64,000 bases of DNA from Octopus sinensis. Taxonomy: Eukaryota. Below the pieces are notes generated by a model. That model made no database searches, was not told the origin of the DNA, and saw nothing but the letters and a program-made list of their open reading frames with translations. Shown in pieces: positions 6,704 to 35,505 of the stretch (positions are counted from its first letter, which is position 1; each line of letters starts with the position of its first letter). The stretch lies in NCBI RefSeq assembly GCF_006345805.1, contig NC_043000.1:141422001-141486000 (forward strand), in the 5' to 3' direction. The position numbers were made by a program, and so were the translations under genes.

Positions 6704-8091
6704 CCACGACCACCACCACCACCACCATCACCACAACCACCACCACCATCACCACCACCACCATCACCACCACCATCGCCGCCACCATCGCCGCCACCAC
6801 CACCATCACCACCACCACCATCACCATCACCATCATCACCACCATCACCAACTCCACCACCACAACCATCACCACCGCCACCACCACCACCATCATCACC
6901 ACCACCAACACCACCACCACCATCACCACCACCACCATCACCATCACCACCATCACCATCACCACCACCACCATCACCATCACCACCATCACCATCATCA
7001 CCAACTCCACCACCACCACCATCACCATCACCACCATCACCACCACCACCACCATCACCACCACTACCATCACCATCATCACCAACTCCACCACCACCAA
7101 CTCCACCTGTACCACCACCACCACCACCACCACCGCCACCATCACCACCACCACCACCACCACCACTGACACCAACTCCACCACCACCACCACCACCACC
7201 ATCACCAACTCCACCACCATCAACTCCACCTGTACCACCACCACCACCACCACCACCACCACCACCATCACCACCACCATCACCACCACCATCACCACCA
7301 CCATCGCCGACACCATCACCACCACCACCATCACCACCACCATCACTACCACCATCGCCGCCACCACCACCACCACAACCTCGCCGCCACCACCACCACC
7401 ACCTCGCCGCCACCACCACCACCACCACCACCATCACCACCACCACCACCATCACCATCATCACCATCACCACCACCACCACCACCACCATCACCATCAC
7501 CACTATCACCATCATCACCAACTCCACCACCACCACCATCACCACCGCCATACCACCACCATCATCACCATCACCACACCACCACCACCACCACCACCAC
7601 CACCACCATCACCACCACTATCATCACCATCATCACACCAACTCCACCACCACGAACTCCACCTGTACCACCACCACCACCACCACCGCCACCATCACCA
7701 CCACCACCACCACCACCATCACCACCACTATCATCACCATCATCACCACCACCACCATCACCATCATCACCATCACCACCACCACCACCACCACCACCGC
7801 CACATCACCGCCACCAAACCACCACCACCATCTCACCAACTCCACCACCACCAACTCCACCTGTACCACCACCACCACCACCACCGCCACCACCACCACC
7901 ACCACCACCACCACCATCACCACCACTATCATCACCATCATCACCAACTCCACCACCACCAACTCCACCTGTACCACCACCACCACCACCACCACCGCCA
8001 CCATCACCACCACCACCACCACCACCACCACCACCACCATCACCAACTCCACCATCACCATCATCACCAACTCCACCACCACCACCACCAC
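6704..8091. repeat. About 1.4 kb degenerate (ACC/ATC)n trinucleotide array
   Basis: Direct reading; recurring sub-motif ACCAACTCCACCTGT. Confidence 0.95.
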
Positions 8092-15034: not shown

Positions 15035-15452
15035 TATTTCTTTTTTGCCCACAGGGGTCTAAACACAGAGTGGACAAACAAGGACAGACAAAGGGATTAA
15101 GTCGGTTACATCGACCCAGTGCGTAACTGGTACTTATTTAATCGACCCAGAAAGGATGAAAGACAAAGTCGACCTCGGCGGAATTTGAACTCAGAACGTA
15201 ACGGCAGACGAAATGCCTATTTCTTTACTACCCACAAGGGGCTAAACACAGAGAGGACAAACAAGGACAGACAAACGGATTAAGTCGATTACAACGACTC
15301 CAGTGCGTAACTGGTACTTAATTTATCGACCCCGAAAGGATGAAAGGCAAAGTCGACGTAGTCGGAATTTGAACTCAGAACGTAACGGCAGACGAAATAC
15401 CGCTAAGCATTTCGCCCGGCATCCTAACGATTCTGCCAGCTCACTGCCCTTA
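15035..15452 (-). mobile_element. SINE family B, dimeric
   Basis: Two body units joined at AAAGAAATAGGCATTTCGTCTG (read on the minus strand near 15205-15230). Confidence 0.88.
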
Positions 15453-19702: not shown

Positions 19703-20476
19703 TTTATTTATCGTCCACAGAGGGTTAAACACAAAGGGGACAAACAAAGGGATTAAGTTGATTACATCGCCCCAGTGCGTAACTGGTACTTATTTAATCG
19801 ATCCCGAAAGGATGAAAGGCAAAGTCGACTTCGGCGTAATTTGAACTCAGAACGTAACGGCAGACGAAAAACAACTGAGCATTTCGCCCGGCGTGCTAAC
19901 AATTCTGCGAGCTCGCAGCCTTATAATGAGAGATATTATAGTCTCAGCAAACCTAGACAGTAGGGTGGATTCTGGCAGTTTTTGAGCAGAGAAACCCTTT
20001 TTTCAACAATATCTGAAAGAGCACACGAGTCAGCTAGTAATACAGCAGCAAAGCGATGAAAGTATTAATTATCTTTGCTCGGCTTTTCGGGGATAGCTCT
20101 CTTTTCAACCAGGACAGACAAACGGATTAGGTCGATTATATCGACCCCAGTGCGTAAGTGGTACTTATTTAATCGATCCCGAAAGGATGAAAGGCAAAGT
20201 CGACTTCGGCGTAATTTGAACTCAGAATGTAACGGCAAACGAAAAACAACTGAGCATTTCGCCCGGCGTGCTAACAATTCTGCGAGCTCGCAGCCTTATA
20301 AAGAGAGATATTATAGTCTCAGCAAACCTAGACAGTAGGGTGGATTCTGGCAGTTTTTGATGAGAGAAACTATTTTTTCAACAATATCTGAAAGAGCACA
20401 CGAGTCAGCTAGTAATACAGCAGCAAAGCGATGAAAGTATTAATTATCTTTGCTCGGCTTTTCGGGGATAGCTCTC
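19703..20476. repeat. About 375 bp tandem duplication containing a minus-strand SINE B plus flank
   Basis: 19750-20101 repeated at 20125-20476, nearly identical. Confidence 0.9.
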
Positions 20477-20770
20477 TTTCCAACCATTTCTGACGAAGTA
20501 ACTACGTCAGTCGTTGTCTTGTCCTGTTTCCTCTATACCGAGTGAAACTCTTTAACTTTCTTCACAGTTCAAATGCTCGGTAGTACGAACTTAGCTGCTC
20601 AATCGTTAAGTTTCAAACATACAAAATGTTTCTGCTTAACAATTGTTTCTCGTATAGACCTATACCACATCACCTGGGTGTGAATCACCACGACGATAGC
20701 TTTTAAATAAATCCAATAGTAAGAGAAAATATTCAAAATTACAAATTACTCCAAGATTATGTAAAAGAGT

Positions 20771-24346: not shown

Positions 24347-25099
24347 GATGGAAGAAACCGTTTCACCTCTGCACAAAAATAATTGGCTGTTGTTTGAAGG
24401 CCGTATAGTTTGAGGGCTTTAACATGCCTGGTATGATAATTGCTGTTGTCATTGTTCTGTGTTTAAGCACTTCTTCATTCCTTTGTAAGCAATATTGTCT
24501 CAAGCATTCTAGCCATAACCACCCTGTGATTAATTATTTTTATGTGGTAATATACCTAGGGCAGATTTATGTAGTATACACTTCCAATTTTGGGACAATA
24601 TGCGGTTTTAAGAAAATTTTGGCAGATATTTCTGGCAAATATGGGCAGTTCACGACACCTGTGAAGACGGCAGTTTATGTAAATTTTCTCGTTTACATAA
24701 CTTGTTTGTCTGTGTAAGCATACACAAGTGCGTGCGCGCACACACACACATCCACACTCGCACGCGCACGTATGTATGCGAGTATGTATCTATGCATGTG
24801 CGCCTGTGTATCTCAGTGTGCGTGTATGTGTGTATGTGGGGTGCGTGTATGGATGTGTCGGTGCGTATTCGTAGTTCTATGCGTGATAGTTGCATCTACT
24901 TTCTTCTTGTGGTAAGTGTGTGCGGTTACAGACTTTGTGTGATTCCCTGGCAGTCATACGCTAGTCATCGGCGACATGATGCGAACTGATGTTTGTCGCA
25001 TACTTATTTTGTATTCTGTCTGTTAGTCCATTCAAGCCGTCTGCGTACGTAGGCTCACGTACAACTCTTAAACAGAAACAAAGATATATTTACACACAC

Positions 25100-26067
25100 A
25101 AGGCGGCGAGCTGGCAGAAACGTTAGCACGCTGGGCGAAATGCTTAGCGGTATTTCGTCTGTCGCTACGTTCTGAGTTCAAATTCCACCGAGGTCGACTT
25201 TGCCTTTCATCCTTTCGGGGTTGATAAATAAAGTACCAGTTACGCACTGGGGTCGATGTAATCGACTTAATCCCTTTGTCTGTCCTTGTTTGTCCCCTCT
25301 ATGTTTAGCCCCTTGTGGGTAATAAAGAAATAGGTATTTCGTCTGTCGCTACGTTCTGAGTTCAAATTCCGCCGAGGTCGACCTTTGCCTTTCATCCTTT
25401 CGGGGTTGATGAATAAAGTACCAGTTACGCACTGGGGTCGATGTAATCGACTTAATCCCTTTGTCTGTCCTTGTTTGTCCCCTCTATGTTTAGCCCCTTG
25501 TGGGTAATAAAGAAATAGGTATTTCGTCTGTCGCTACGTTCTGAGTTCAAATTCCGCCGAGGTCGACTTTGCCTTTCATCCTTTCGGGGTTGATAAATAA
25601 AGTACCAGTTACGCACTGGGGTCGATGTAATCGACTTAATCCCTTTGTCTGTCCTTGTTTGTCCCCTCTATGTTTAGCCCCTTGTGGGTAATAAAGAAAT
25701 AGGTATTTCGTCTGTCGCTACGTTCTGAGTTCAAATTCCGCCGAGGTCGACCTTTGCCTTTCATCCTTTCGGGGTTGATGAATAAAGTACCAGTTACGCA
25801 CTGGGGTCGATGTAATCGACTAATCCCTTTGTCTGTCCTTGTTTGTCACCTCTATGTTTAGCCCCTTGTGGGTAATAAGAAATAGGTATTTCGTCTGTCG
25901 CTACGTTCTGAGTTCAATTCCGCCGAGGTCGACTTTGCCTTTCATCCTTTCGGGGTTGATAAATAAAGTACCAGTTACGCACTGGGGTCGATGTAATCGA
26001 CTTAATCCCTTTGTCTGTCCTTGTTTGTCCCCTCTATGTTTAGCCCCTTGTGGGCAATAAAGAAATA
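25100..26067 (+). mobile_element. SINE family B pentamer (one head plus five units of about 184 bp)
   Basis: Units start at 25149, 25333, 25518, 25702 and 25885; flanking TTTACACACACAA direct repeat. Confidence 0.93.
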
Positions 26068-26599
26068 TTTTTACACACACAACATGCAAAAATACACAGA
26101 TACACTCTCACACATACATACATACATACATACAGGTGCTCAAATACATACACGCACACCGACTCATCCTCATACTCACATACACACACACATGTTATAG
26201 AGATGTGACTTGATACTTGTCATGAATATGTCGTATAATGCTGCTTGAGTGTATCAATGTGTCCCGCTTCGTATTCCCTTCATCACTAAATAATTATACG
26301 TAATGCGAAATTACGAAAATCCCCAAGCTCAGCAGAAACACAACGTGTAATCGTTACAAACAGTCAGAACGTTGTGTACTCGACGAAAGCTTCATTACCA
26401 TACATTGTTCAACTGGTGGTCTTTTCCTGAATTGTTCCGATGTAGGTGATCGCAAACTACCTTAGTATCCGTCTTGAGACGTTGAGCTTCACAAATATAG
26501 GAAGGACACCGTTAATTAAAGCAACAATGGCAATTACAAGCCATTAATGGAAGCGTAAGTATCACATTGCAGACGTTTAGCCTGTACTACTCACACACT

Positions 26600-35405: not shown

Positions 35406-35505
35406 NNNNNNNNNNNNNNNNNNNNNNNNNNNNNNNNNNNNNNNNNNNNNNNNNNNNNNNNNNNNNNNNNNNNNNNNNNNNNNNNNNNNNNNNNNNNNNN
35501 NNNNN
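35406..35505. other. Assembly gap (100 N)
   Basis: N run. Confidence 1.

Follow-up and report, generated by a model that had tools for sequence, protein, structure and literature searches.

A self-targeting octopus SINE family and the probable origin of one of its arrays

Within the window analysed here (the whole stretch of 64,000 nucleotides from Octopus sinensis) lies a head-to-tail array of five near-identical units, at 25089–26082, that belongs to an abundant tRNA-like SINE family. We think it probable that the junction between its units came about through a LINE enzyme pasting copies into older copies at one base, with local DNA duplication then lengthening and homogenising the array. 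A sequence-only reading had seen the array for what it was but not how the junction arose, in all likelihood by insertion into older copies at a specific site. Viewed against the family, the pentamer and its alternation of unit types (ABABA) become ordinary; it is the self-targeting family that is interesting.

The pentamer and its family

The layout first described, a single head followed by five units of 183–185 bp, stands. The units start at 25149, 25333, 25518, 25702 and 25885 and measure 184, 185, 184, 183 and 183 bp, with a 47-bp head ahead of unit 1. Reference numbering is that of the 231-bp monomer at 25102–25332. The features are:

25089–25101, + strand: left target-site duplication (TSD), 13 bp (sequence; chance control)
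25102–25148, + strand: single tRNA-like head, reference positions 1–47, with an A-box-like motif at 25111–25122 (sequence; Pol III consensus)
25133–25160, + strand: predicted hairpin, 12 bp, with a 4-nt loop at 25145–25148 (prediction; monomer z −2.1)
25149–25332, + strand: unit 1, A type, T at 219, with a B-box-like motif at 25172–25185
25333–25517, + strand: unit 2, B type, with an extra C and an A>G change, both within 25380–25413
25518–25701, + strand: unit 3, A type
25702–25884, + strand: unit 4, B type, variant at 25749–25782, three private changes
25885–26067, + strand: unit 5, A-type body, C at 219
26068–26082, + strand: TT and the right TSD copy (26070–26082), with TTTTT at 26068–26072
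15035–15448, − strand: second family multimer of the window, two unlike units, the first of T type and the second of C type

The same TSD does flank both ends, a perfect 13-bp sequence, TTTACACACACAA, that matches the window only at 25089–25101 and 26070–26082, with TT separating unit 5 from the right copy. Both ends have an exact 13-mer in 23 of 102 elements and in none of 10,302 mismatched flank pairs, so the pentamer TSD is not a product of chance. As had been reported, the extra C and the A>G change are common to units 2 and 4; a C at reference position 219 is present in unit 5 alone. Unit 5 likely keeps the 3′ end of what would be the oldest copy. The private differences are the three changes in unit 4 and one deletion in unit 5; one A is missing at the unit 4/5 junction.

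The family is short, dispersed and present in high copy number, as expected of a tRNA-derived SINE, and over the array no ORF of at least 150 amino acids was found. The A- and B-box-like motifs were judged against the Pol III consensus, the latter in all five units, and ARAGORN and Rfam returned no tRNA match. No run of four or more T occurs inside the array. The first such run after the head is the TTTTT at 26068–26072, a possible Pol III terminator. MetaSINEs are marked by a 66-bp Meta domain, and our family may resemble the octopus OK SINE in its head and the Meta/MESC domain in its centre. The OK SINE was reportedly the work of Ohshima and Okada in 1994. Two older sister families have positions 1–166 in common with the main family and differ in their tails, and the main family's own diagnostic sites form a strong mosaic that looks like the work of recombination (both seen across loci L001–L140). 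The Meta/MESC central domain of SINEs is dealt with in the available text of PMC4824008 and PMC4758252.

The joint between units, from the tail of one to position 48 of the next, is the same across loci. A genome-wide exact-match check found it fixed at one base in thousands, with 6,037 matches in the assembly (G000) and none for the control, which makes the junction a feature of the family rather than of the locus. It is also present in read-derived contigs of all four sequencing runs, under three organism labels, and the window's second multimer has a junction identical to that of the pentamer. Exact 3′ ends number 85,000 for the T type and 25,219 for the C type. In the first 100 ends of each type, read by eye, a unit starting at position 48 comes next in 53 cases for T and 7 for C, and the exact junctions divide into 5,406 T and 455 C. 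Given this excess of T at junctions, the family as a rule has T inside and C last.

Multimers are common. A 200-kb sample placed at round coordinates contained 19 family elements, 7 of them multimers, and adding the window gives 9 of 29. Variable TSDs were present in 28 of 44 monomers and 30 of 43 multimers, with a median length of 15–16 bp. The junction starts at position 48 in 249 of 296 cases, a biased figure since most loci were picked for that junction.

Several side observations belong here. A second nesting site lies at position 15, where the A-box-like motif ends; it accounts for 20 of 296 junctions, is seen at L006, L007, L015, L040, L046 and L135, and also serves the sister family. 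In L017, L018 and L024 the SINE lies within the head of an unrelated tRNA-like SINE, at a single place that matches. Heads alone can form tandem repeats of 65–66 bp (positions 1–63 plus AA), up to five copies before a full SINE, at L049, L050, L051 and G000:C7:15322787–15323079. Elsewhere in the window, a 375-bp tandem duplication at 19738–20486 takes in unique flank and most of one SINE copy, a local event with no link to position 48; 6704–8091 is a degenerate 1.4-kb (CCA)n repeat with stop-free frames of up to 564 amino acids, and 35406–35505 is a run of 100 N.

Insertion into older copies

What brought one copy to sit at base 48 of another? The pattern head–TSD–head has 194 exact matches in the genome (control 0), and 12 of 20 inspected by eye were full nested insertions. 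Their order is an old head or older unit, a duplicated 48–63, a complete new copy and then the old remainder; at L048 a private variant is found (by eye) in both TSD copies. Nested copies with a TSD of their own show directly that insertion into DNA copies occurs at 47|48.

A LINE does the same. The one in L107 has Pfam domains zf-CCHC, Exo_endo_phos and RVT_1, and Atlas named both the Tx1 149 kDa protein and LINE-1 ORF2 (0.96). It is, going by these predicted domains (an ORF1 zinc knuckle, an APE endonuclease and a reverse transcriptase), of Tx1/L1 type. Its end matches the SINE tail over 34 nt at 88% identity. From 443 candidate LINE copies 40 were scored and 30 fetched, of which 29 are inserted at 47|48. 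This LINE is young; its copies are 99% identical, and the SINE units that follow them are varied and older, mostly 86–95% like the reference; at L159 an old head and a TSD are preserved on the 5′ side of the LINE. The L107 LINE has C, not T, at the equivalent of position 219, and this together with the 88% tail means that the true partner may be a sister family. Other LINE-like 3′ ends with up to 45 nt of SINE tail were seen at L019:229–265 and L077:4864–4908, the L077 end having T at the 219 equivalent and so being a candidate for the true partner, and another element, at L079:4713 and L090:2245, has about 42 nt of the tail followed by (TATC)n.

These insertions bear on an explanation at the level of RNA. 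The reverse transcriptase might copy one SINE RNA up to position 48 and then jump to the 3′ end of a second RNA, on meeting a break at the hairpin loop or through pairing with another RNA's GGUAUUU end, and so make a multimer in one insertion. The predicted hairpin loop has its 3′ edge at 47|48, where copies land. Template jumping would fit a junction fixed at a loop edge, as it would unlike units, heads of the incoming type and the G at base 48. Against it, the nested copies with TSDs and the 99%-identical LINE copies in front of older SINE units show insertion at the level of DNA, and it leaves five near-identical units unexplained. The TSDs of multimers are, moreover, more diverged than those of monomers (31 of 479 against 14 of 415 bases; p=0.045, a weak difference), which favours growth in place. 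We regard template jumping as an unlikely origin for the array.

The history that we favour, insertion followed by duplication, would have four steps. A C-type copy would have inserted first, generating the outer TSD. A T-type copy would then have been primed at 47|48 by a Tx1/L1-type LINE protein; an RNA whose 3′ end, GGUA(UUU), stemmed from read-through at a nested source locus probably helped by pairing. The second head would next have been lost, either through annealing with the homologous target or through the copying of a read-through dimer RNA over its full length. Finally, unequal crossing-over or slippage would have spread one body sequence and left the old C at the edge, and two B mutations in one unit, followed by one two-unit duplication, would have given ABABA. 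Unit 5 matches the other units except for position 219 and one deletion, so the founders are indistinguishable here, and it is from other loci that we infer the first two steps.

The loss of the head deserves a closer look. Headless junctions number 6,037 and two-head nested ones 194, two patterns that differ in stringency, and an old head was clearly kept in only one headless dimer, L109. Most A+B dimers have a head of the incoming type, with 19A in 9 of 12 where 15 of 19 sister monomers have 19T, and simple annealing at the TSD does not predict this. Homologous annealing, read-through dimer RNA and template jumping may all contribute.

Base 48 itself holds a clue to targeting. In 38,245 exact matches to heads it is G in 21,461 and C in 16,784 (44% C), and 13 of 29 LINE junctions have C48. 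SINE junctions have C48 in 125 of 6,162 (2%) and G in 6,037, and C48 is absent (0 of 76) from loci chosen without the exact G-junction pattern. Heads with C are not younger (0.0395 versus 0.0411, p=0.84). This contrast of heads and LINE with SINE junctions points to a SINE RNA that brings along a few of the bases of its target, a putative GGUA tag. It could instead be due to a sister LINE whose endonuclease needs G48. Non-SINE flanks start with GGTA at 26 of 67 T-type ends and 1 of 57 C-type ends, the most frequent letters over seven positions spelling GGTATTT, and C-type flanks prefer AGA (23 of 57, against 4 of 67 for T-type), which is the sequence at position 15. At L045, L050 and L056 a piece of head and a full copy lie within a fresh TSD starting GGT, a structure expected if nested loci are transcribed to just past the tail.

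All this invites a bolder idea, which we hold tentatively and would put at somewhat less than an even chance: a self-guiding SINE. Transcripts of nested copies would extend by a few bases into the old host head, stop at its TTT and so carry the landing site, prime on matching copies and renew the nested source. Through such a loop roughly one element in three would become a head-to-tail chain ordered by age, and such chains would seed satellites and shuffle the variants of subfamilies.

Lengthening, alternation and unit order

If insertion seeds the arrays, their units ought to be read alongside those of the family at large. In 41 of 43 A+A dimers (L036, L038 and L073 excluded as duplicates) the two units are unlike, with a mean distance of 0.095 against 0.099 between loci. 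RNA-primed, DNA-templated duplication, tried as a general seed, predicts dimers alike except at the 3′ end and was ruled out, the two alike dimers of the 43 differing at 6 and 10 scattered sites. The last member of a chain is often from a sister family, with the same positions 1–166 and another tail. Among unlike pairs T comes before C in 29 and C before T in 1, and C-type monomers are the more diverged (0.058, n=22, against 0.034, n=40, for T-type). In 31 of 41 dimers it is the downstream unit that has diverged further (p=0.0025). T+T dimers taken alone show this difference in age only weakly, at 12 versus 8, and ten unlike trimers have no steady gradient (0.044, 0.037, 0.055).

Longer arrays are more uniform. 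In arrays of at least five units 29 of 39 adjacent pairs differ by less than 0.04, compared with 2 of 30 in dimers. Array sizes were taken from fetched loci, and L039, L064, L130 and L018 have 9–13 units each. The longest array seen, at G000:C28:11146176–11150238, extends over 4 kb, with 17 exact junctions of the C48 type and about 22 units.

A multimer could also have been inserted ready-made, Pol III having transcribed the array, or a shorter form of it, from a multimeric source. The perfect TSD speaks for this, as does an array with no internal run of four T, and L045, L050 and L056 show that nested loci have served as sources. The B variant, however, has no other genomic copy, and no high-copy multimer source was seen: among 60 unlike pairs, just 4 pairs of loci have rare variants in common in each of their two units, where the null has a mean of 2.0 and a maximum of 8, although many small sources would escape detection. 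(A Mantel correlation, r 0.34, was set aside as confounded by locus age.) Insertion of a whole multimer seems to us quite improbable, and growth in place remains the preferred reading.

The alternation is a matter of two alignment columns only. The letters that units 2 and 4 share are real enough; the label of higher-order structure overstates what two letters can bear. Unit 2 has 2 differences from unit 3 and 5 from unit 4, and it is the private changes in unit 4 that leave unit 2 nearer to unit 3. Mean substitutions between units of the pentamer are 3.0 at lag 1 and 1.7 at lag 2, over 2.5 periods, where a higher-order repeat satellite has a multi-unit period repeated many times and same-class units that are closer to each other than to their neighbours. 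Alternating patterns recur in several of 14 arrays with at least four units. The B variant has 2 matches genome-wide, both in the pentamer and 369 bp apart; the corresponding A-type 30-mer has 80. One ordinary local duplication of two units, not the copying of a circular RNA, is the likely source of the alternation.

Could the count or the alternation be an artefact of assembly? Single-base deletions in short runs, as in units 4 and 5, are typical of unpolished long-read sequence, and a read or contig spanning the whole array was not seen; contigs of runs X2 and X5 that enter from the left flank cover 19 and 26 bases of the head, where 31 count as bridging. Yet a 31-mer across both B letters is found in read-derived contigs of two runs, at depth 47 in X1, a possible source run, and at depth 7 in X2, whose flank contig has 4.59, with none for X3 or X5 among the matches listed, and the junction is in all four runs. 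The B variant is therefore real and the number five is a figure of the assembly; that either the count or the alternation is an artefact strikes us as extremely improbable.

The sequence-only reading had pictured a dimeric or circular template, or else unequal crossing-over on the scale of a dimer, a SINE turning into a satellite. The fixed junction, the dimer-scale crossing-over and the drift towards a satellite have fared well; the template has not. Rolling-circle copying of a circular RNA of 184 or 369 nt would account for near-identical units, a fixed junction and one TSD pair. But continuous copying of a circle would yield identical units, at odds with the 41 of 43 unlike dimers; an AB circle has no source locus besides the pentamer itself, where the B variant is private; and unit 5, which would be copied first, has a C absent from both A and B. 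Nor was a ribozyme found. A search across junctions on both strands gave no hammerhead core motif, and Rfam gave only a chance mir-297 match on the flank. We consider a circular template very unlikely, and ordinary duplication after insertion the better account.

Related systems and the route to satellites

Several published systems resemble ours in part, and the comparisons here draw on the available portions of the sources. One is that of SINEU-3 and the Tx1-Mar LINEs of crocodilians (Kojima 2015, PMC4494074), which have a common target inside a Mariner transposon and form tandem copies by sequential insertion. Both cases have a SINE and a LINE, Tx1 there and of Tx1/L1 type here, with a common target inside another repeat; in crocodilians the target is Mariner and the TSD is sandwiched between copies, whereas here it is the SINE's own head and the second head is mostly absent. 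Drosophila R1 likewise builds arrays by repeated insertion at one site, and at R1/R2 5′ junctions target sequence in the RNA anneals to give precise junctions (Stage and Eickbush 2009, PMC2718515). Those elements are autonomous LINEs in rDNA with a 14-bp TSD between copies, and ours is a SINE that targets itself. For R1Bm and SART1Bm it was found by experiment that accurate priming gains from a short stretch at the 3′ end of the RNA, a few bases long, that matches the target (PMC7265360). This is a precedent for the putative GGUA tag, drawn from experiments on insect LINEs where ours is drawn from junction statistics.

The satellite end of the story has its parallels too. Squamate SINE-derived satellites (Vassetzky et al. 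2023, PMC10702118) and the TSD1-(SINE)n-TSD1 arrays of the clam S. broughtonii (PMC11481361) are made of internal portions and have been ascribed to unequal recombination; the clam arrays are about 3% of elements there, against 7 of 19 in unselected DNA here. Like these, our arrays have one head, repeated partial units and one TSD pair, and grow more uniform with length; unlike them, the units keep a complete tail and the seed is probably a site-specific insertion. The unit is shorter than the SINE (184 of 231 bp), as in such a satellite (sSat), and the pentamer has three middle units where the working cut-off in the accessible text of PMC10702118 is four or more middle monomers. In metazoans, non-LTR retrozymes (Cervera and de la Pena 2020, PMC7229834) have tandem units of 170–400 nt, each with a type I hammerhead. 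No hammerhead was found in our units, and the SINE has a putative Pol III-type head and shares its tail with a LINE.

A search of the open literature (Repbase, Dfam and subscription papers lying outside it) gave no title on self-targeting or multimers of an octopus SINE, and the terms dimer, multimer and satellite are absent from the available part of PMC13282606. The self-targeting family is a variant of target-specific SINE–LINE pairs. It offers thousands of dated intermediates, from monomer to nested insertion to unlike dimer to homogeneous array, and so bears on the question of how dispersed repeats become satellites. And the contrast between SINE and LINE at base 48 provides a direct test of whether a SINE RNA helps to pick its own target.
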